Source: Gammaproteobacteria bacterium (GTDB taxonomy: Bacteria > Pseudomonadota > Gammaproteobacteria > JAPPPA01). Taken from it: DNA of 64,000 nucleotides. The stretch spans positions 2,290 to 66,289 of the forward strand of contig JAUHZK010000009.1 in NCBI GenBank assembly GCA_030425645.1, written 5' to 3'. Positions 33,844 through 42,076 of the stretch are shown here, piece by piece. The notes beneath the pieces are model-generated. The model was not told the origin of the DNA, ran no database searches, and saw nothing but the letters and a program-made list of their open reading frames with translations. The position numbers and the translations under genes are program-made. Within the stretch, counting starts at the first letter, position 1; each line of letters starts with the position of its first letter.

Positions 33844-33909
33844 ACAATCGGCCACGGAACCTAAAGCGGACCCCGCTCTGGGTTGCGTGGCTTTCAATCA
33901 GATAAAACG

Positions 33910-35634
33910 ATGAAAGCCTCCCAGATTACGGTTTCCACCCTTAAAGAAGTCCCAGCTCACGCGGACGTTATTTCTCAACAACTGATGCTGCGCGCTGGCC
34001 TTATCCGCCAGCTTGCCTCTGGCCTTTATAGCTGGATGCCAATGGGCCTACGCGTATTGCGTAAGGTTGAAAACATTGTCCGCGAAGAAATGAATGCGGC
34101 CGGTGCCGAAGAGCTCCTGATGCCAGCCGTACAACCAGCAGAGCTGTGGCAAGAGTCTGGCCGCTGGCAAAAATATGGCGACGAGTTACTGCGTTTAACT
34201 GACCGCCACGACCGCGAATTCTGCGTTGGCCCCACGCACGAAGAAGTTATTACCGACATCGCCCGCAACGAGCTAAAAAGCTACAAGCAACTGCCGCGTA
34301 ACTTCTACCAAATTCAAACCAAATTCCGTGACGAACGCCGCCCTCGTTTTGGCGTCATGCGCGCACGGGAATTTATTATGAAGGACTCCTACTCCTTCCA
34401 CCTTGGCACGGATTCGCTCGCTGAAACCTACCAAACCATGTACGACACTTACTGCCGTATTTTCAGCCGTATTGGCCTGAATTTCCGCCCAGTAGAAGCC
34501 GACACCGGCAGCATTGGCGGCAACGCCTCGCATGAATTCCATGTGCTGGCTGAATCTGGCGAAGACGATATCGCCTTCTCTACCGAAAGCGATTACGCCG
34601 CTAACGTTGAGATGGCGGAAGCGCTGTCTCCTATAAGCGACTTGGCCGAGCGAGCTGCCGCTGGTGATGCCATGAGCAAATTCGACACCCCGAGCCAACG
34701 CAGCATTGCCGAGGTTTGTGAGCTCACCGGTGCAGATGCAACTGAAACAGTCAAAGTGTTGCTGGTACAAGGCGCTAACGAAGAGCAGCCAGTGATCGCG
34801 CTAGTGCTACGTGGCGACCACGAGCTCAACGAAATTAAAGCCGAAAAGCTGCCAGAAGTCGCCGAGCCGCTCACGCTCGTCAATGACGATCAAATCAAAG
34901 CCGCCGCTGGTTGCGATGCCGGCTTTATCGGTCCGGTTGGCCTAAACGTGCCAATGATTGTTGATCGCGCCGCCGCCGCTAACGCTAACTTTATCTGTGG
35001 CGCTAACGAAAACGGCTATCACCTTAAAAACGTTAACTGGGATCGTGACTGCGACGAACCAGCCAACGTAAAAGACATTCGTAACGTCGTCGCCGGCGAC
35101 CCTTCGCCAGACGGCAAAGGCACGCTTGAAATCAAACGTGGCATCGAAGTCGGTCACGTTTTCCAACTCGGCCAGAAATACGCCGAAGCCTTAGGCGCAA
35201 AAGTGCTCGACGAAAACGGCAAAAACACCACCATGGATATGGGTTGTTACGGCATTGGCGTGAGCCGCGTGGTGGCCTCAGCCATTGAACAAAACAACGA
35301 CGACCGCGGCATACTGTGGCCAGAAGCGATCGCACCGTTCCAAGCAGTTATCTGCCCTATCGGCTACAAGAAGTCAGAAGCCGTAAGCGCCAAATGTGCT
35401 GAGCTATATGACGCACTAACCGCAGCCGGTATTGAAGTCTTACTCGACGACCGCGATATCCGCCCCGGCGTCATGTTCGCCGAATGGGAACTGATCGGCG
35501 TTCCACACCGGTTCACCATTGGTGACCGTGGCCTAGACAAAGGTATTGTTGAATACAAACAACGCCGCGCAGAAAGCAGCGAAGATTTAGCCGCTGACGA
35601 TATTGCTCAGCTTGCCGCCAAAGTAAGTGCCTAA
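33910..35634 (+). CDS. proS: Prolyl-tRNA synthetase.
   Basis: The product starts [49 protein letters not shown], a bacterial-type ProS N-terminus. Class II synthetase motifs and an editing-domain insert are present. The listed ORF starts 9 codons earlier. Confidence 0.93.
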
Positions 35635-35637
35635 GCC

Positions 35638-36498
35638 GTGAACGCTCAAGCTCCCATCTTTGCGCCATTTGCCCGCTGCCATCGGCATCTTGAATATCGC
35701 TTGACTGAAGCCGTAAGCACAGAGAGCTTGCGCCCCGTCATTAAAGCGGCAGAAGAAGCCGGCAACGTCGTCATCGGCTTTGGACACACACTTTGGCAAC
35801 AACTCAGCCAAAACACGCCGCCTGAGCTAAAACCCTTTAGTGATATTGGCCCCGCACGCAGCACCCAAGCTGACTTATGGCTCTGGATTGCCGCAGACGA
35901 TCATTCGGCGGTGCTCGACACCAGCATGGCACTGCACACCCTGCTCTCTCCCATCGCCACACTAGAGCGCGAAATTGATGGATTGGAATATCACCAGTCA
36001 CGTGATCGTATTGGTTTCGAAGATGGCTCAGCCAACCCCCAAACTGAAGAAGCACAGCGCCAAGCGGCTTGTATTCCAGAGGGCGTAACCGGCACCGGCG
36101 GCAGTTATGTGTTGACCCAACAGTGGCAGCACAACCTACCGGCCTTTAATGCCATCCCGCTTAAAGAACAGGAAGGCATTGTCGGCCGCACTAAGGCGGA
36201 TTCCATTGAATTGGAAGGCGACGAGATGCCAGCCACCTCACATGTCAGCCGCACCGACGTTAAGGTGGATGGCGTGGCGCAAAAAATCTGGCGGCGCAGT
36301 GTGCCTTGGGGCGGCGTAGAAGCCAACGGCTTGTACTTTGTGGCTTTTGCTTGCGAGCTAAGCCGCATAGAGATTCAATTACAGCGTATGTACGGCCTGA
36401 GTGAGGATGGTATTAAAGACCGCCTCACTGAGTTCTCAACGCCAATCAGCAGTAGCTGGTGGTTTACCCCATCCCAAGAACAACTAAGGGCGCTATAA
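35638..36498 (+). CDS. Dyp-type peroxidase family protein (YfeX/EfeB-like).
   Basis: GTG start. It has the DyP GXXDG motif (RIGFEDGSANP) and the expected length and fold pattern. It lies immediately downstream of proS. Confidence 0.7.
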   Translation: MNAQAPIFAPFARCHRHLEYRLTEAVSTESLRPVIKAAEEAGNVVIGFGHTLWQQLSQNTPPELKPFSDIGPARSTQADLWLWIAADDHSAVLDTSMALHTLLSPIATLEREIDGLEYHQSRDRIGFEDGSANPQTEEAQRQAACIPEGVTGTGGSYVLTQQWQHNLPAFNAIPLKEQEGIVGRTKADSIELEGDEMPATSHVSRTDVKVDGVAQKIWRRSVPWGGVEANGLYFVAFACELSRIEIQLQRMYGLSEDGIKDRLTEFSTPISSSWWFTPSQEQLRAL

Positions 36499-36566
36499 AG
36501 CGCCCTTAGTGTTGGCTGTCGTAAGCGCAATAAGCGCTTTAACGACCCAGTCTTAGCAGCTAGTCC

Positions 36567-37034
36567 CTACCGGCCAATTAGACCAAGCAAGTTTTCGCGG
36601 CGAACCCAAGCCAAGGTTGCACTCGCAAGCCAAACGCCACAAGCCATCGCAAATAACGCACCACCGTCGCTGCTACCGTCAGCATTCTGAACAGCCACAC
36701 CCAGCGGTGTGAACAGGTGGAAGAAGATAGCGCCAGAAATCACGCCCATTGATAACAACGCCCCAAGGCCTTGCAGCAAACGTGGGCCAATTGCACCGAT
36801 GATCAACATAATCGACGCAATCAGTTCAGCTGTACCGACTACCTTGGCACTAAAAATACCACCCGGCGCAAAAATACCGCCAAAGCCAAGTGTTTCCGCC
36901 CAAGCATCTAGTTTGGTTTCAAAGATATACACCGTTTCTGGCGAGCCAGTGAATTTGAAAAACAGCGACTGAATAAATACAAAGCTAATAAAGGCCGTGA
37001 GCAAATAGTGTCCGTTCTGTTTTAACCAGTTCAT
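36567..37034 (-). CDS. DoxX-family small integral membrane protein.
   Basis: The 155-aa product has four predicted transmembrane helices and DoxX-like composition. It is the last gene of the four-gene operon. Confidence 0.55.
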   Translation of the reverse strand: MNWLKQNGHYLLTAFISFVFIQSLFFKFTGSPETVYIFETKLDAWAETLGFGGIFAPGGIFSAKVVGTAELIASIMLIIGAIGPRLLQGLGALLSMGVISGAIFFHLFTPLGVAVQNADGSSDGGALFAMACGVWLASATLAWVRRENLLGLIGR

Positions 37035-37044
37035 TTTTATATTC

Positions 37045-38202
37045 CTATTCGAGAGAGTCTAAATTGATATCGTTTAACGCTGCCCACTGCTTACCGCGGG
37101 CCAAATCTTGGCGAAATAATCGCAACAAACCCCAGGCAGAAGTTACCTCAGCGTCTCGTTTTATTTCCTGAGCACCCAGTGCAAAACACAAACGCCAATG
37201 CTGGAACAAAGCGCGATAACCGTCAATTAGTCGCGCCCCAGGGTGATAAATATGAGCCGGTTCGCTGGTCACGCCGTTAACTTCTAACACTTGCAAGCCG
37301 ACACCCCGAGCCAGATCGTCGGCCGAAGCACAGCGTAAATCGGCACGACCAATATTAAACCCAGGCATAGCCTCAAACACACGCTCGGCCCAGGCCTCTA
37401 GTTCAGGAGTGATTAGATGCCGCGCATCTAAAAATGTCGTGCCGCGACAATGCGCGCCAATTTCAACCAGCTGCACGGTTTCCGCTTTAGCCGGTATTGA
37501 TTGCATTAGCTCAGAGCGCTCTTTCCACAAGGTCGGCGCTATTAGCGCGCCTCGCGCGTCCGCTTCCACCAACTCCGCCAAGCTACGCTCGCCATCACCG
37601 ATAACGATCGGAAACTGCTTCTCGTTAATCGACAAGATGCGGGCCTTGTGCGTGTCAGGGTCCTTATAAATGAGGACGCCGAATTCTTGGCCAGCGGCGA
37701 AACGCTGCAACAATACTTGCGACTCAGGGCCGGGCGGCACAGCCGACAAATATTCAGTTAGATCCGCGTCTGAGCGCACCACCGCAACCGCACGCCCACG
37801 TTGCCCTTGATTGGGCTTAATTACCAAAGGGTAACCACCTAAATCCTGAGCACTGGCTTTGGCCACAGCGGGATCAAAACCTTCTGCGCCATAAGACAAC
37901 AAGCGCCACGCGGGTACTGCTTCAGGAAAATTCTCAGTCAGAGGGGTCAAAATACGGGCTTTAGATTCACCACAAAGACCGCTGGCGTGCCCCATCATTG
38001 GATTGCAGGCGCTAAAAGCAGTTAATCGTCGATGCCTCAAACCCAGCAACAATATCCACAACACCACCGGAATATAAACCAACCAAGACGGCCAAAATTC
38101 CCAGCGACCAGCACGGCGAAGGCTAGTTGCCCAGCGCTGCATACGGGGTTGATCCTGCCAATGCTGCGGCGGCAACTGCGCCAATTCTTCAGGTGTGGCC
38201 AT
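37045..38202 (-). CDS. ATP-grasp domain protein with an N-terminal transmembrane segment.
   Basis: The 385-aa product has an N-terminal hydrophobic helix (WEFWPSWLVYIPVVLWILLLGL). It has ATP-grasp hallmarks: GYPLVIKPNQGQRG in the K-loop, a central GQEFGVLIY, and the Mg-binding LQVLEVNGVTSEP. Its start overlaps the stop of the upstream DinB-like gene. Confidence 0.65.
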   Translation of the reverse strand: MATPEELAQLPPQHWQDQPRMQRWATSLRRAGRWEFWPSWLVYIPVVLWILLLGLRHRRLTAFSACNPMMGHASGLCGESKARILTPLTENFPEAVPAWRLLSYGAEGFDPAVAKASAQDLGGYPLVIKPNQGQRGRAVAVVRSDADLTEYLSAVPPGPESQVLLQRFAAGQEFGVLIYKDPDTHKARILSINEKQFPIVIGDGERSLAELVEADARGALIAPTLWKERSELMQSIPAKAETVQLVEIGAHCRGTTFLDARHLITPELEAWAERVFEAMPGFNIGRADLRCASADDLARGVGLQVLEVNGVTSEPAHIYHPGARLIDGYRALFQHWRLCFALGAQEIKRDAEVTSAWGLLRLFRQDLARGKQWAALNDINLDSLE

Positions 38203-38711
38203 TAAGCAGCAGAGGCCGCATCTTCGGTGGAGGTCGCGTAACGTCGCGTACCAGGCGCCACGCCAAAGCCATCTGGCAGGGCCACATTGGCCTCTTTTAG
38301 CGCTAAGGCAACAAAGGCGTAATGGTGAATAGCATGCAAACCTACAAATTGCAGCTCGCGGCCAAGGCTACTTTCGGCAGCCATTTGATCTTCACCCACC
38401 ATACCCACTGCGAACTCAGCGCGAATAGGTGCTTCCATTGGTAATGGTCGCCCAGTTAGCAGCTCTTCTACTTCCGTTAGCGCTGCCAACATGGCATCTG
38501 GGTCGGACTCTAGGCAGCCACCGCGGGTGCGTTTTTCGTAATCTACGCAGCCGTTAGAAACGCCGTCAAGTAAAAGCTGGTAATGCTCAATCACGTGTCG
38601 CAAATGCGGCCCGACTTTGGCAGAAAACTCGATCTCGGTTCCGTCCACGGCTTTAACAACGTCGCGGGCTTGCTTCAATAGCTGGCAGTTGAATTGAATT
38701 AATGGGCTCAT
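38202..38711 (-). CDS. DinB/YfiT-like (DinB_2) metal-dependent four-helix-bundle protein.
   Basis: The 169-aa product has a His-rich triad pattern (HLRHVIEHY ... HAIHHYAF) characteristic of the DinB_2 / MDMPI / bacillithiol-transferase superfamily. It is translationally coupled to both neighbours. Confidence 0.55.
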   Translation of the reverse strand: MSPLIQFNCQLLKQARDVVKAVDGTEIEFSAKVGPHLRHVIEHYQLLLDGVSNGCVDYEKRTRGGCLESDPDAMLAALTEVEELLTGRPLPMEAPIRAEFAVGMVGEDQMAAESSLGRELQFVGLHAIHHYAFVALALKEANVALPDGFGVAPGTRRYATSTEDAASAA

Positions 38712-38712
38712 G

Positions 38713-39129
38713 TCAGGCGACCTGCACTCCGTCTTCTATGCGTTCTTCTCGATACAGCAACAAGCTGTAACCGCTGGCAAATCCAATCGTGGGCAAAATC
38801 CCTGGAGCCAATGTTAATAAAATTTTGGGCGTGCCTAGCGCCGTGTGCACGGAAATAAGCAAGGCATAGGTAAACACCATGGAACCTAGAAACGAACAAG
38901 CAACACTCATTAGCGGCCAACGTCCTAGGCCATAACAAAGCCGCATGATACGCACACCAAAGAATGTCAGAAAGGCAGACAAGCTCCAATGGCTTAAGCC
39001 AATCATCCAAGCATTGTCGGCACCAGCATGATGATTGACTGCAAAAGCCCAAGCACCATAAAGCCCTCCCCCCAGCAAAGCGCCGAGTGGCGAGTCGATT
39101 AGTGCATGTAAGCGGCTCAGAATCATCAA
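38713..39129 (-). CDS. Small polytopic membrane protein (4 transmembrane helices), unknown family. First gene of the operon.
   Basis: The 138-aa product has four hydrophobic helices. A 196-nt divergent promoter region lies upstream. Confidence 0.5.
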   Translation of the reverse strand: MMILSRLHALIDSPLGALLGGGLYGAWAFAVNHHAGADNAWMIGLSHWSLSAFLTFFGVRIMRLCYGLGRWPLMSVACSFLGSMVFTYALLISVHTALGTPKILLTLAPGILPTIGFASGYSLLLYREERIEDGVQVA

Positions 39130-39325
39130 TACGTCTTTATGTCTGCAATCTAGGTAACCAGTTTACCGTGGCTGCGGCTCTAGAGCCCAAATAGATTGTT
39201 AAGTTCCTGAGTAAAAAGCAATTTTGCTTATCGTCTCTTTTTAATTCAATTAGGGAACCGCCACCGCAAGCCTGTGTCACTAGGCCAAACAAGCCACCTT
39301 AACGGCAGCCAAACGGAGCTCTACC

Positions 39326-40834
39326 ATGATCGACAACCTCACTGACAGCTGGTTCTTTGGAACCTTAGAAGCCCTCTCCATTCTCTTTGTATTTACGTTG
39401 GGCCTAGCGCTACTGGTGATCGTTGGCATGTACATTGCTGACGTCACGCAGAGCAAGCAAGCCATTCGCCGCAACTACCCAGTAGTGGGACGATTTCGAT
39501 ACATCTTTGAACATATGGGCGAATTTTTCCGCCAATACTTCTTTGCCATGGATCGTGAGGAATTACCGTTTAACCGCGCCGAGCGCAGCTGGGTGTACCG
39601 TGCTGCTAAAAATGTCGATTCCACCACTGCGTTTGGCTCCACACGAGACCTACGCCCCACTGGCTCCGTATTTTTTGTGAACTGCCCCTATCCAACACTG
39701 GGTGAAGACGCCGTGCCAACTAAGGCGGTTACGCTTGGCCCTTATTGTGACAAGCCGTATACCACCGACTCGCTAATCAATATCTCAGGCATGAGCTACG
39801 GTGCGCTCTCAATCCCCGCCGTCCGCGCGCTCTCCAACGGCGCTCGCAAAGCCGGCTGCTGGATGAACACCGGTGAAGGCGGTCTCTCTCCTTACCACCT
39901 CGAGGGCGGCGCCGATATTGTCTTCCAAATTGGTACCGCCAAATTTGGCGTGCGAGATTTAGACGGCAATTTATCTGACGAAAAGCTCAAGGAAGTCGCT
40001 GCTCACGAGCAAGTCAAAATGTTTGAGATAAAACTCAGCCAAGGTGCCAAACCGGGTAAAGGCGGTATTCTGCCCGGCGCTAAGGTAACCGAAGAAATTG
40101 CCGGCATTCGCGGCATTCAAGTCGGCGAAGACGCTCTAAGCCCGAATCGCCACCCAGATATCAATAATGCCGACGATCTACTGGCGATGATCGAACGCGT
40201 GCGTAAAACCACCGGCAAACCCGTCGGCTTCAAAACCGTGATTGGCGCTTACGGCTGGTTGGACAATCTATTTGAAGAAATCGCCAAGCGCGGCCCCGAG
40301 TGTGCGCCCGACTTTATTACCGTGGACGGCGCCGACGGTGGCACCGGCGCGGCGCCAACCAGTTTGATCGACTATATGGGCTTACCGCTGCAAGAAAGCC
40401 TGCCGATGCTGGTGGATATGCTTAAACGCCACGGTCTGCGTGACCGCATTAAAGTCATTAGCTCCGGTAAGCTGATCACACCTGCCAATGTCGCTTGGGC
40501 TCTCTGTGTTGGTGCCGACTTTGTCGTCTCGGCGCGTGGTTTTATGTTTTCGCTAGGCTGCATACAAGCCTTACAGTGCAACAAAAATACCTGCCCGACT
40601 GGCATCACCACTCATGACCCTAAATTCCAAAAAGGTCTTAACCCCACTGAGAAGTCAGAACGCGTTGCCAGCTATGTCAAAAACATGAAGTATGAAGTCG
40701 GCATTATTGCTCACTCCTGCGGCGTTAAAGAGCCACGCGGACTAAAACGATTTCATGCGCGAATGGTGACCGCTGACGGCAAATCCGTACCGCTAGACGA
40801 GCTCTACCCAGAAGTTGAGGTTTCTGCGTCATAA
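39326..40834 (+). CDS. FMN-dependent glutamate-synthase-domain protein (GltB domain-2 homolog, PF01645-like) with an N-terminal membrane anchor.
   Basis: The 502-aa product has an N-terminal transmembrane helix (LSILFVFTLGLALLVIVGMYI) and a glutamate-synthase FMN-domain signature (GMSYGALS...NTGEGG...DGADGGTGAAP). Confidence 0.75.
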   Translation: MIDNLTDSWFFGTLEALSILFVFTLGLALLVIVGMYIADVTQSKQAIRRNYPVVGRFRYIFEHMGEFFRQYFFAMDREELPFNRAERSWVYRAAKNVDSTTAFGSTRDLRPTGSVFFVNCPYPTLGEDAVPTKAVTLGPYCDKPYTTDSLINISGMSYGALSIPAVRALSNGARKAGCWMNTGEGGLSPYHLEGGADIVFQIGTAKFGVRDLDGNLSDEKLKEVAAHEQVKMFEIKLSQGAKPGKGGILPGAKVTEEIAGIRGIQVGEDALSPNRHPDINNADDLLAMIERVRKTTGKPVGFKTVIGAYGWLDNLFEEIAKRGPECAPDFITVDGADGGTGAAPTSLIDYMGLPLQESLPMLVDMLKRHGLRDRIKVISSGKLITPANVAWALCVGADFVVSARGFMFSLGCIQALQCNKNTCPTGITTHDPKFQKGLNPTEKSERVASYVKNMKYEVGIIAHSCGVKEPRGLKRFHARMVTADGKSVPLDELYPEVEVSAS

Positions 40835-40870
40835 TCTAAAGCACAAAACTCATTCGTTAGGAGCCAAGCA

Positions 40871-42076
40871 ATGGCCAGCAGCGCCGTTTTCGTTAGCCTC
40901 GTGATTATCGCGCTCTTGTTAGAGCGCTACACCGAGCGTACCCGCCTGCCTTTTAGCATTGTGCTGGTGATTGTCGGCTTTATCGGTTCCGAGATCATCA
41001 CCGGCCTAGGGTTTGATACCGGCCTACGTTGGCATACCTTTGAAGTGCTGATTCTGCATATTCTGGTACCCGTACTGGTATTTGAATCAGCCTACAAACT
41101 GCCACTCAAGCATCTACTACCCAATCTCGGTTTGGTCTTACTGATGGCCATTCCGGGCATGGTGATTGCGGCAGTCATTACTGCCGTGGGTGTTTATTAC
41201 GGTATCGGCCACCCAAGCTTTTTCCCCTTTGCTGCCGCCTTGCTGACGGGGGTGATTGCCTCAGCCACGGATCCCGTTGCCGTGGTCGCCATTTTTACCA
41301 AACTAGGCGTACCCCATCGATTAACCACCTTACTTGAAGGCGAAAGCCTATTTAACGACGCCACCGCCGTGGTCGCCTACACCTTGGTGCTGGCCTTGGC
41401 GCTGATGCCGGGCCAATCCTTAGAACCAATCAGTGCTTCGATCCAGTTCGTGTCCACCTTCGGCGGCGGTATTCTCGCCGGCGCCATTGCTGGTGCTGGC
41501 GGACTACTGATTACCAAGCTCGCTGACGACGATTTACACCAAACCATTGTCGCCCTTTGTGCGGGCATGATGTCTTTCTGGTTAGCTGAGGATTTTGCTC
41601 ATGTATCAGGCATTGTCGCCGTGTTGGTTTGCGCCATCTTTATGGGCGAAGCGCATCGCCGCCATTTGCAAGATCACCAGCAAACGCAGCAAACACTGGA
41701 GCTAGGGGCTTGGATTGCCAACGCCATCGTGTTCTTATTGGTCGGCGTCAGCATCACCTTCGATATGTTCGCCAATCAATGGCTGACCATGTTGATTGCG
41801 ATTGCAGCGGCCATTGCGGCTAGAGCCTTTAATGTTTACTGCATGCTGCCGATCGCCACCACCGTAAAAATTGGCGGTGAGATCCCATTGGCATGGCGAC
41901 ATGTGATTTTCTGGGGCGGGCTCCGCGGTGGTGTTTCGCTGGCCCTAGTGCTGTCAATCCCAGTAGAGGTCGAAGCTTGGTATACGATTCAGGCGGCTGT
42001 TTACGGCGTCGTCTTGTTTAGCTTATTGGTACAAGCAACTACAGCTGAGCCATTAATTAGAAAACTCATTAAATAA
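40871..42076 (+). CDS. Na+/H+ antiporter (CPA1 family).
   Basis: The 401-aa polytopic membrane protein has the conserved TDP motif (ATDPVAVVAIF) of Na_H_Exchanger proteins. Confidence 0.8.
   Translation: MASSAVFVSLVIIALLLERYTERTRLPFSIVLVIVGFIGSEIITGLGFDTGLRWHTFEVLILHILVPVLVFESAYKLPLKHLLPNLGLVLLMAIPGMVIAAVITAVGVYYGIGHPSFFPFAAALLTGVIASATDPVAVVAIFTKLGVPHRLTTLLEGESLFNDATAVVAYTLVLALALMPGQSLEPISASIQFVSTFGGGILAGAIAGAGGLLITKLADDDLHQTIVALCAGMMSFWLAEDFAHVSGIVAVLVCAIFMGEAHRRHLQDHQQTQQTLELGAWIANAIVFLLVGVSITFDMFANQWLTMLIAIAAAIAARAFNVYCMLPIATTVKIGGEIPLAWRHVIFWGGLRGGVSLALVLSIPVEVEAWYTIQAAVYGVVLFSLLVQATTAEPLIRKLIK

Follow-up and report, generated by a model that had tools for sequence, protein, structure and literature searches.

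The locus under study consists of four genes, g1 to g4, which are encoded on the minus strand between positions 36567 and 39129 of the window (that is, the whole 64-kb stretch of DNA analysed here). All four open reading frames were found at the coordinates given in the preliminary description of this DNA and are listed here together with the candidate control elements:

39180..39207, minus strand: candidate ECF/sigma-E-type promoter (GGAACTT-N16-TCTAG), ~55 nt upstream of the g1 ATG
38713..39126 from ATG (38713-39129 from TTG), minus strand: g1, small membrane protein, 137 aa from the ATG
38202..38711, minus strand: g2, DinB/YfiT-fold four-helix-bundle protein with a conserved histidine cluster, 169 aa
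37045..38202, minus strand: g3, membrane-anchored ATP-grasp ligase, 385 aa
36567..37034, minus strand: g4, four-helix DoxX-superfamily membrane protein, 155 aa
36483..36510, minus strand: hairpin terminator after g4 (stem of 12 pairs, 7 of them G-C; 4-nt loop)

Public gene callers choose the ATG at 39126 as the start of g1, with an in-frame TTG at 39129. A single nucleotide separates g1 from g2 (TGAcATG), base 38202 is common to g2 and g3 (TAATG), and the 10-nt gap between g3 and g4 includes AGGAA. With stops and starts that overlap or abut, and with a terminator after g4, the sequence upholds the earlier proposal of a translationally coupled four-gene operon, along with its junctions and the 196-nt intergenic stretch towards a divergent gene at 39326. 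The hairpin is probably bidirectional, serving also the convergent gene for a Dyp peroxidase, which has its end at 36498. As for the putative promoter, which we take to be of the sigma-E type from its consensus, GGAACTT-N16-TCT has a single match in the 64-kb window, against 0.13 expected. A close relative (L004, 70% identical) has GGAACTT-N16-TCTGA, with an 11-nt block (TCAGGAACTTA) and the TCT kept and the rest of the upstream region diverged; the element was absent upstream of g1 in the other lineages whose upstream regions were compared. The flanking genes (proS, Dyp peroxidase, GltB-like and Na+/H+ exchanger) retain synteny in close relatives only. The order of the four genes, in turn, is kept in Solimonas and a Comamonadaceae genome, at 44-67% protein identity, as well as in dozens more genomes, so the arrangement is not due to chance.

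The g3 protein starts with a conserved WEFWPSW motif and a single hydrophobic helix (residues 37-55). Its catalytic domain extends from about residue 110, homology to ATP-grasp enzymes beginning near residues 106-116. The central and C-terminal domains have the ATP-grasp fold, and residues 1-105 are helical, with no beta-alpha-beta domain and hence no N-terminal Rossmann-like (pre-ATP-grasp) domain. Among 40 homologues, the ATP-binding lysine, the glycine-rich loop and the magnesium-binding Asp/Glu/Asn are invariant (K129, G133, G136, D288, E307, N309) and line up with the motifs of CphA1. Further invariant residues include Q166, E173, K195, R286 and G310 in the catalytic part and E35, F36, W37, P38, W40, P68, G75, E79 and K81 in the N-terminal part. 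The nucleotide- and magnesium-binding signatures, the unusual N-terminal transmembrane helix and the N-terminal stretch without homology that had been noted before are all substantiated. Judged by its motifs, g3 is a catalytically intact ATP-grasp enzyme, with a conserved hydrophobic membrane helix where such enzymes usually have their N-terminal substrate domain.

With the AF2 model of g3 (pLDDT 91), the best Foldseek matches in the PDB were the G domain of CphA1/CphA2, followed by the ATP-grasp domain of GshF and then Ddl (TM-scores 0.45-0.48, 16-23% identity; probability 1.00 for CphA1, GshF and Ddl), and a profile search against PDB sequences returned the same order with an E-value of 1e-11. 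Even so, comparison with the characterised ATP-grasp families placed g3 in none of them, its NCBIfam scores lying well under every curated cut-off. A cyanophycin synthetase is rejected by score (TIGR02068, 46 bits vs 850), by length (385 aa vs ~870 aa for N+G+M) and by the lack of a Mur-ligase-like domain, and a D-alanine--D-alanine ligase by NF002378 (23 bits vs 243), Pfam Dala_Dala_lig_C (14 vs 24) and the lack of the Ddl N-terminal domain. The same holds for RimK/glutathione synthetase (TIGR00768, 14.5 bits vs 143; GshAB model, 17 vs 425). A weak match was seen to TIGR03103, the ATP-grasp part of N-acetylglutaminylglutamine synthetase (E-value 4e-5, 22 bits vs a cut-off of 569). In databases, all proteins of the module are named either 'hypothetical' or, mistakenly, 'D-alanine--D-alanine ligase'.

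The g2 protein has the four-helix-bundle DinB fold with a beta-hairpin insertion at residues 95-115. H36, H39, H126, H129 and H130 are invariant and H43 is kept in at least 90% of sequences; H36 and H39, plus the H-x3-H pair H126 and H130, are candidate metal ligands, which would make g2 a putative metal-binding partner of the g3 ligase. Although g2 of the window had no Pfam DinB_2 match at an E-value of 0.1 or below, many homologues pass the gathering score, as does a natural fusion protein described below (L081; 30.7 bits vs 24.8), and, with the conserved histidines, the previous DinB_2-like assignment holds. In structure, g2 comes closest to DinB proteins that are uncharacterised rather than to thiol transferases, and in a Phycisphaeraceae genome a DinB-like protein is paired with TANGO2 without any ATP-grasp. 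Ligation chemistry as such leaves the role of the DinB-like protein unexplained.

Hydropathy predicts four moderately hydrophobic, glycine-rich stretches in g1, with invariant polar residues (N31, S50, T54, Y87, H94, T105) within or close to them. It had no Pfam or NCBIfam match, and its relatives are few (107 clusters at 50% identity among 1.8 billion representatives), so far as sequence can tell a small new membrane-protein family. Homology to DedA/VTT proteins was considered and rejected: an hhalign comparison of the g1 alignment with the DedA domains fused to g3 gave a probability of 0.6%.

The fourth gene is the most conserved of the set (63-79% identity across orders vs 47-72% for g3) and encodes a protein with four predicted hydrophobic segments and invariant Q22, K27, E33, W45, E70, H106 and D123. 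Its designation as DoxX-like stands, with a sub-threshold score in the window (DoxX_2, 16.9 bits vs 26.3) and DoxX_2 matches at an E-value of 0.01 or below in 8 of 21 family members; a verrucomicrobial member in L081 passes the cut-offs of both DoxX_2 and DoxX (27.3 and 25.6 bits). The g4 protein is not specific to the ligase system, because its family is much larger (4252 matches) and it occurs without g3 in L090, there with a periplasmic YHS protein.

Relatives of g3 were found in 393 species genomes, and 80 species-level loci fetched from these underlie all co-occurrence counts given here. The g2 gene adjoins g3 in 74 of the 80 loci, g4 is present in 55 and a YHS gene in 46. A g1 gene occurs in 49 loci and a DedA/VTT domain in 25, never both, which makes the two complementary in distribution only. 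Most Proteobacteria have the g1 form, the place of g1 being taken by a protein or domain of the DedA/VTT family in Acidobacteriota, Verrucomicrobiota and Vibrionaceae. Besides, several components are fused: g1 with g2 (P0320 and P0322), DinB_2 with VTT and ATP-grasp in a single 728-aa protein (L081), an abhydrolase with VTT and ATP-grasp (816 aa, L092), and VTT with ATP-grasp in Acidobacteriota and Azospirillum. More distant g3 homologues have other surroundings: a SAM methyltransferase together with an iron redox enzyme in Komagataeibacter, and only a hydrolase and DedA in Paracoccus. The expectation, set beforehand, that the genes would co-occur beyond their own genome was thereby borne out. 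The idea that the four genes might simply be unrelated neighbours is extremely unlikely: g4 belongs to a larger family and occurs without g3, and the flanking genes are syntenic in close relatives only, but the coupled start and stop codons, the gene order kept across phyla and the three kinds of fusion among g1, g2 and g3 speak against it, and for g1-g3 the fusions rule it out. The four genes thus are a real, widely conserved and uncharacterised membrane module. In line with the initial impression that the set fits no described pathway, our literature search found no paper linking its components, and the database names were uninformative.

What the wider survey added is a linkage to aminolipid synthases, a new finding of this analysis. 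Genes of the OlsB/OlsA/OlsF type are the commonest neighbours of the module, with one of them no more than 6 kb away in 54 of the 80 loci. The arrangement of the genes varies, at least six kinds being represented (Nevskiales, Burkholderiales, Kangiella, Acidobacteriota, Verrucomicrobiota, Vibrionaceae), and the linkage is also seen in Vibrio, Photobacterium and Variovorax replicons. In Vibrio aquimaris, DedA, g3, g2, NRDE, YHS, g4 and, as the last gene, an OlsF-like gene form one tightly packed seven-gene operon. The remaining 26 loci (e.g. most Nevskia and Oceanococcus) have no aminolipid synthase within 6 kb. The linked synthases score under the NCBI equivalog cut-offs (OlsF, 358-424 bits vs 620; OlsB, ~145 vs 350). 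No OlsB/OlsA/OlsF, YHS, TANGO2 or DedA gene was found in the 64-kb window or in the close relative L004, so that for the organism of the window the aminolipid link rests on homology to loci elsewhere.

Vibrio cholerae probably has a locus of this kind. Its putative operon VCA0649-0646 ends with VCA0646, which is a functional OlsF (PMC12186959). One RNA-seq comparison groups VCA0650-1, VCA0648-9 and VCA0646-7 with cpxP, msrB, copA, thioredoxin 2 and glutaredoxin, VCA0650-1 being annotated as 'D-alanine-D-alanine ligase, hypothetical' (PMC7600106). From synteny and annotation rather than sequence, VCA0647-0651 would appear to be the module described here.

With gene structure, folds, catalytic motifs, co-occurrence, fusions and the linkage to aminolipid synthases directly established, the operon of the window is best read as the minimal proteobacterial form of a widespread module whose core is g2 plus g3. 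Since in most other bacteria genes for ornithine-lipid-type synthases lie next to this module, it makes a good candidate for an ATP-dependent step that modifies the amino-acid lipids of bacterial membranes. The recurrent partners are aminolipid synthases (OlsB/OlsA/OlsF family), DedA/VTT, TANGO2/NRDE and an alpha/beta hydrolase, and a membrane aminolipid head group is therefore the likely substrate; that the module is a membrane ligase forming an amide on this head group we rate at about even chances. In such a mechanism, the core would work with a small polytopic membrane protein, either g1 or, elsewhere, DedA/VTT. At the cytoplasmic face, g3 would spend ATP on converting a carboxylate at the surface of the membrane into an acyl-phosphate. 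This carboxylate would most likely be the free alpha-carboxyl of an N-acyl amino-acid lipid of the ornithine-lipid type, as produced by OlsB/OlsA or OlsF, and g3 would then join an amine (an amino acid, taurine or similar) to it to yield a head-group-extended aminolipid. Addition of an amine to an amino-acid or peptide alpha-carboxyl is the reaction of all the nearest solved relatives of g3, namely the G domain of CphA1/CphA2, GshF and Ddl. The g2 protein may act as a stoichiometric partner that binds or presents the second substrate, or may catalyse a metal-dependent follow-up step, while g1 (DedA elsewhere) might handle or translocate the lipid. A separable envelope accessory, probably related to redox or metals, is suggested for g4, whose usual YHS (seleno)protein partner is missing from the window. 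In this scheme we infer that the proteins associate physically, what the two substrates are and which roles fall to g1, g2 and g4. More tentatively, and with the odds leaning against it, g3 and its partners could be the missing ATP-dependent enzyme class that amidates the carboxyl of ornithine-type lipids, giving cerilipin-like tauro-lipids or undescribed dipeptide- or amine-extended aminolipids. Bacterial DedA/VTT and TANGO2/NRDE homologues would then belong to one lipid pathway, which would provide a genetically tractable bacterial model for these two families, whose lipid roles in eukaryotes are debated.

A rather unlikely alternative is a membrane thiol/redox defence, in which the ATP-grasp makes a glutathione-like peptide or thiol, the DinB-like protein is a metal-dependent thiol S-transferase and the DoxX-like protein with YHS forms an envelope redox link. 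The resemblance of g3 to the GshF ATP-grasp domain would fit, as would the match of the YHS partner to the 'YHS domain-containing (seleno)protein' model (NF041384, 156-167 bits), AhpC/TSA peroxiredoxin and LysR genes upstream of g1 in ~11 Nevskiales loci, Rieske/ferric-reductase membrane proteins in 18 loci, the grouping of the V. cholerae cluster with msrB, thioredoxin 2 and glutaredoxin, and the Dyp peroxidase gene that adjoins the operon in the window. Yet the redox-flavoured genes (YHS, g4, Rieske) can be set apart as a module of their own, found also where g2 and g3 are missing, the structures closest to g2 are not those of transferases, and neither the membrane anchor of the ligase and its DedA fusion nor the prevalence of OlsB/OlsA/OlsF neighbours is explained. 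No glutamate-cysteine ligase or other thiol-biosynthesis gene was present in the neighbourhoods examined, and nothing in them favours the thiol-like compound of the earlier suggestion that the operon serves a small peptide or thiol-like compound at the membrane.

It is quite improbable that g3 is instead an N-acyl amino acid synthase. Such an enzyme would couple a fatty acid, activated at its carboxylate, to an amino acid at the membrane and thereby replace or complement OlsB in an ATP-dependent manner, with a logic like that of GH3-type OlsH. An ATP-dependent, OlsB-independent route to lyso-ornithine lipid through OlsH is known (PMC12971839). The anchor places the active site of g3 at the bilayer, and in the window, which has neither OlsB nor OlsF, the operon could be self-sufficient; in most carriers, however, an OlsB or OlsF right beside g3 would then be redundant, and the nearest characterised relatives activate amino-acid or peptide alpha-carboxylates rather than fatty acids. 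To our knowledge, no ATP-grasp enzyme uses fatty acids.

Very unlikely, finally, is a module that acts on an envelope precursor, whether linked to polyprenyl phosphate or not (candidates being intermediates of peptidoglycan, LPS or capsule), with DedA as a carrier-lipid flippase and a Ddl-like ligase adding an amino acid. DedA-family proteins are implicated in undecaprenyl-phosphate recycling, g3 resembles Ddl, some homologues are annotated as 'D-alanine--D-alanine ligase', the window has its sigma-E-like candidate promoter, and the V. cholerae cluster is co-regulated with cpxP. Against this, the Ddl curated cut-offs are missed tenfold and the Ddl N-terminal domain is absent, and in the 80 loci no glycosyltransferase, Mur-ligase or polysaccharide-export gene recurs; aminolipid synthases, TANGO2 and the hydrolase recur instead.

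The reading we prefer, amide formation on an aminolipid head group, would matter in several respects. Aminolipids are major phosphorus-free membrane lipids with few known modifications, and the ATP-dependent addition of taurine to an aminolipid has been without a gene since the 1970s (PMC12971839). A conserved membrane ATP-grasp/DinB module that adjoins OlsB or OlsF in no fewer than three phyla (Pseudomonadota, Acidobacteriota, Verrucomicrobiota) is a concrete candidate for such chemistry. If this is true, it would give context to V. cholerae genes that are called 'unknown function' yet are tied to cell death, T6SS sensitivity and envelope-stress regulation, and likewise to bacterial TANGO2/NRDE and DedA homologues. 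The module is present in tractable bacteria, too (Vibrio, Paracoccus denitrificans PD1222, Azospirillum). The preferred reading would also add a new architecture to the ATP-grasp superfamily, with a transmembrane helix in place of the N-terminal substrate domain.

Compared with known systems, g4 and g2 depart from their families in distinct ways. DoxX proteins, such as M. tuberculosis DoxX with its partners SseA and SodA or the subunits of thiosulfate:quinone oxidoreductase, are four-helix membrane proteins like g4, and distant g4 members pass Pfam DoxX and DoxX_2; proteobacterial members, however, are marked by a specific insertion as well as by the motif FxQSLFFKF(T/S), which is near-invariant, and their usual partner is a periplasmic YHS (seleno)protein, not SseA or SodA. 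Within the DinB/YfiT superfamily (DR0053, YfiT, BstA, mycothiol S-transferase, EgtB N-domain), g2 of the window stands apart by the lack of a Pfam match, the beta-hairpin at 95-115 and an additional set of invariant arginines; besides, it is always encoded alongside an ATP-grasp or TANGO2 gene and at times fused to membrane domains.

The CphA1/CphA2 G domain and the GshF ATP-grasp domain, the best sequence and structure matches to g3, share with it the ATP-grasp fold, the KP..G..G.G loop and the D/E/N magnesium ligands, and CphA and GshF couple the amine of an amino acid to the alpha-carboxyl of a peptide or amino acid via an acyl-phosphate. They differ in that identity is 16-23% and the TM-score ~0.46-0.48, that g3 is without M, N or GshA domains and has a membrane helix instead of the N-terminal substrate domain, and that CphA/GshF have no known DinB, g1 or DedA partners. 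Ngg (GNAT + ATP-grasp), the N-acetylglutaminylglutamine synthetase, follows the logic proposed for OlsB/OlsF plus g3: an N-acyltransferase is combined with a CphA-like ATP-grasp, and the latter lengthens the N-acylated amino acid from the carboxyl end. Unlike g3, however, Ngg is a soluble protein, and the acyl group in question is acetyl, not that of a fatty acid.

Among the modifiers of ornithine lipids, the hydroxylases OlsC, OlsD and OlsE and the methyltransferase OlsG are likewise accessory, altering the head group or acyl chain and often being stress-induced (PMC12971839), yet they belong to other enzyme classes, none of them ATP-grasp, DinB or DedA, and are not reported as a multi-gene membrane module. 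In Gluconobacter cerinus, taurine is transferred to the ornithine lipid carboxyl to give cerilipin in an ATP-dependent reaction whose gene is unknown (PMC12971839). The Acetobacteraceae matches to g3 that we saw are from Komagataeibacter only (33-35% identity) and lie in a different gene context. Cerilipin synthesis amounts to ATP-dependent amide formation on a free aminolipid carboxyl, which is the chemistry to be expected of a membrane ATP-grasp encoded beside OlsF or OlsB.

Four minus-strand reading frames were found where the preliminary description had placed them, and its annotation-level interpretation of these genes was right. The features of the operon and its surroundings, in window coordinates, are as follows:

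38713-39129, minus strand, small membrane protein (g1), TTG start
38202-38711, minus strand, DinB-like protein (g2), 169 aa
37045-38202, minus strand, ATP-grasp ligase (g3), 385 aa
36567-37034, minus strand, DoxX-superfamily membrane protein (g4), 155 aa
36510..36483, minus strand, 12-bp hairpin 3' of g4, facing the end of a convergent Dyp-peroxidase gene
33883-36498 and 39326-42076, flanking genes: proS, Dyp-type peroxidase, membrane-anchored GltB-like FMN protein, CPA1 Na+/H+ exchanger

Reading the strand directly confirmed the close coupling described for these genes: a single base separates g1 from g2 (TGAcATG), g2 and g3 overlap in TAATG with base 38202 common to both, and the 10-nt gap between g3 and g4 includes AGGAA. 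Public gene callers start g1 at the ATG at 39126, one codon after the TTG, which gives 137 aa. The stop codon of the Dyp-peroxidase gene lies inside the hairpin (36483-36510), and this single hairpin seems to be the terminator of both g4 and the peroxidase gene. We rejected the flanking genes as members of the module, their synteny with the operon being restricted to close relatives (loci L004 and L086).

The operon lies 196 nt from the divergent gene at 39326, and a sigma-70 promoter scan of this upstream region gave no match. A candidate promoter, GGAACTT-N16-TCTAG, is located upstream of g1 at 39180-39207 (minus strand); GGAACTT-N16-TCT has a single match in the whole window, compared with 0.13 expected, and is kept in L004 inside a spacer that has otherwise diverged. 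A search of the region 5' of g1 in 48 further loci showed the sigma-E-like motif to be limited to the window's lineage. We take it to be like ECF sigma-E/AlgU promoters, and the candidate promoter would fit an envelope-stress role.

Matches of g3 to ATP-grasp models were weak and all far under the curated cut-offs (e.g. 46 bits against the cyanophycin synthetase model, cut-off 850, and 23 bits against the Ddl model, cut-off 243). Together with the domain architecture, the curated scores led us to reject g3 as a cyanophycin synthetase, Ddl, RimK or GshB. Aligning 40 homologues revealed an invariant catalytic set (K129, G133, G136, D288, E307, N309, R286) and, equally conserved, an N-terminal block R-W-E-F-W-P-x-W ... 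A-A-N-P ... G-E-x-K. In the AlphaFold model (pLDDT 91), a normal ATP-grasp body begins at about residue 110; the part before it consists of helices alone, including a strongly hydrophobic one (residues 37-55, by model and hydropathy), which bears out the unusual N-terminal membrane helix claimed for this protein. Foldseek ranked the cyanophycin-synthetase G domain first, the GshF ATP-grasp domain second and Ddl third, in agreement with a profile search of PDB sequences, at TM of about 0.46-0.48 and 16-23% identity. Several g3 homologues carry the public label "D-alanine--D-alanine ligase" (H1, CP004365.1; H19 and H20, Salinivibrio kushneri; H49, S. proteolyticus), a name that finds no support in the curated Ddl scores or, given the absent Ddl N-terminal domain, in the architecture.

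For g1, in which four stretches are moderately hydrophobic, no known family was matched, and relatives are few (107 clusters among 1.8 billion representatives); profile-profile comparison ruled out a diverged DedA. The best E-value for g2 in the profile search of PDB sequences was 0.78, so that its placement needed structure comparison. The four-helix membrane protein g4 matched DoxX_2 under threshold, and more distant members of its family pass the DoxX cut-offs.

A single-sequence g3 query against genome contigs returned no match, and an alignment-based query found relatives in 393 species genomes, 80 loci of which were fetched for the co-occurrence counts. All-against-all clustering of their reading frames was blurred by antisense ORFs in GC-rich DNA, and the larger clean clusters were kept. 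The g2 gene adjoins g3 in 74/80 loci, two of the six exceptions being truncated contigs, and g1 occurs in 49/80, that is, in every proteobacterial locus but Kangiella and two truncated Burkholderiales contigs. Directly upstream of g3, 25 loci have a DedA/VTT domain (all but one of the 25 Acidobacteriota loci, plus the one from Verrucomicrobiota), in a common reading frame where checked; this domain is non-homologous to g1 by profile comparison, and the two occur together in none of the 80. Besides, 55 loci have g4 and 46 encode a periplasmic YHS protein. Fusions join g1 to g2 (proteins P0320 and P0322), VTT to ATP-grasp (Acidobacteriota, Azospirillum), DinB_2 to VTT and ATP-grasp (a single 728-aa Chthoniobacteraceae protein), and an alpha/beta-hydrolase to VTT and ATP-grasp (816 aa). 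The counts and fusions therefore decisively refute the idea that these genes do not co-occur outside this genome. The g4 gene is less specific to the module, since its family is far larger (4252 matches) and the YHS-g4 pair is also found without the ligase, e.g. next to Rieske/ferric-reductase, sulfur-transport or peroxiredoxin genes.

Some loci showed further features. One such YHS (seleno)protein and g4-like pair, in a locus with neither ATP-grasp nor DinB gene (L090, 4828-6486), has a Rieske/ferric-reductase membrane protein and Sulf_transp, patatin, AhpC/TSA and CMD genes as neighbours, and seems to be a self-standing redox or metal module of the envelope. A fused ferric-reductase-like transmembrane and Rieske [2Fe-2S] protein is encoded near the module in 18/80 loci (e.g. 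L077, 10308-11369, minus strand): 16 from Acidobacteriota, one from Burkholderiales and the Verrucomicrobiota locus L081. In about 11 Nevskiales loci (e.g. L088, 1597-3392; L030, 3168-4930), g1 is directly preceded by LysR and AhpC/TSA-type peroxiredoxin genes. Kangiella (L063, 4977-5336) lacks both g1 and DedA; there, the slot upstream of g2 is filled by a small VanZ-like membrane protein. A Phycisphaeraceae locus (L091, 5001-6329) pairs a g2-like DinB gene directly with a TANGO2/NRDE gene, no ATP-grasp gene being nearby, and fungal g2 homologues (Spinellus, Meira, Auriculariales) were among the matches, which hints at a DinB-TANGO2 functional pair extending into eukaryotes. In a cyanobacterial assembly (L039, Tolypothrix campylonemoides VB511288 scaffold_076), a proteobacterial-type g1-g2-g3-YHS-g4 cluster lies on an apparently very GC-rich scaffold that looks like a contaminant.

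Unexpectedly, the commonest neighbours of the module, identified by Pfam and NCBIfam models, were genes for aminolipid synthases: OlsB-like (Acetyltransf_5), OlsA-like (PlsC-type) or fused OlsF-like. An Ols-type gene lies within 6 kb in 54/80 loci, where typical genome sizes would lead us to expect well under one case by chance. These synthases score as family members, yet under the NCBI equivalog cut-offs. The linkage is kept through at least six gene arrangements:

Gene arrangements of the module with Ols-type genes
Nevskiales: OlsF, hydrolase, often LysR and peroxiredoxin, then g1-g2-g3-YHS-g4
Comamonadaceae: g1-g2-g3-YHS-g4-hydrolase-TANGO2-OlsB
Kangiella: VanZ-g2-g3-OlsB-OlsA
Acidobacteriota: g2-TANGO2-DedA::g3, with OlsF or OlsBA nearby
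Chthoniobacteraceae: YHS-DoxX-[DinB::DedA::ATP-grasp]-TANGO2-OlsB-OlsA
Vibrio aquimaris (Vibrionaceae): DedA-g3-g2-NRDE-YHS-g4-OlsF, a single tightly packed operon

Photobacterium has the same seven genes as V. aquimaris in identical order on one strand. No OlsB/OlsA/OlsF, YHS, TANGO2 or DedA gene was found in the window's 64 kb or in the 13 kb examined from L004; the window operon is the minimal version of the module.

A literature search found no paper linking OlsF/OlsB, ATP-grasp, DinB, DoxX, TANGO2/NRDE, YHS and DedA. VCA0646 of V. cholerae works as an OlsF and stands last in the putative operon VCA0649-0646 (PMC12186959). The gene is induced at low salinity. A quorum-sensing study termed the four genes of this operon "unknown function" while reporting cell death upon overexpression of vca0646 plus vca0647. 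In an RNA-seq table, VCA0650-1, annotated "D-alanine-D-alanine ligase, hypothetical", VCA0648-9 and VCA0646-7 fall together with cpxP, msrB, copA, thioredoxin 2 and an ECF sigma factor (PMC7600106). Judged by their synteny with V. aquimaris, the three pairs are probably g3, g2, NRDE, YHS, g4 and OlsF, and the ligase entry is probably the same mislabel as in the g3 homologues. A 2026 review describes the ATP-dependent addition of taurine to the carboxyl of ornithine lipid, for which enzyme and gene are unknown (PMC12971839).

The data show how the genes are arranged, which folds and motifs their proteins have, and the co-occurrence, fusions and Ols linkage; the roles given next are inferred. 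For g3, we consider amide formation on the head group of an aminolipid the most likely reaction. Its obligatory partner would be g2; g1, or DedA elsewhere, would serve as a membrane subunit for lipid handling, and g4, together with YHS in the loci that have it, looks like an envelope accessory that can be separated from the rest. Rival readings are that g3 is an N-acyl amino-acid synthase independent of OlsB, or that the module modifies an envelope precursor linked to a carrier lipid. A further rival reading, a membrane thiol or redox system, of which the preliminary description had proposed the thiol part, is weakly supported by the DinB fold of g2 and the redox-type neighbour genes, and leaves both the Ols linkage and the DedA fusions unexplained. 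The aminolipid link represents a new, testable lead on an undescribed module that is built within known superfamilies and spans at least three phyla, including tractable model bacteria. The cyanophycin-synthetase G domain, the GshF ATP-grasp domain and Ddl all join an amine to the alpha-carboxyl of an amino acid or peptide after activating it; g3 has a membrane helix where the carboxylate-holding domain of these nearest enzymes normally sits. Since aminolipids expose a carboxyl of the type targeted by these enzymes, and do so at the membrane surface, the comparison argues for an aminolipid as the substrate on which g3 acts.
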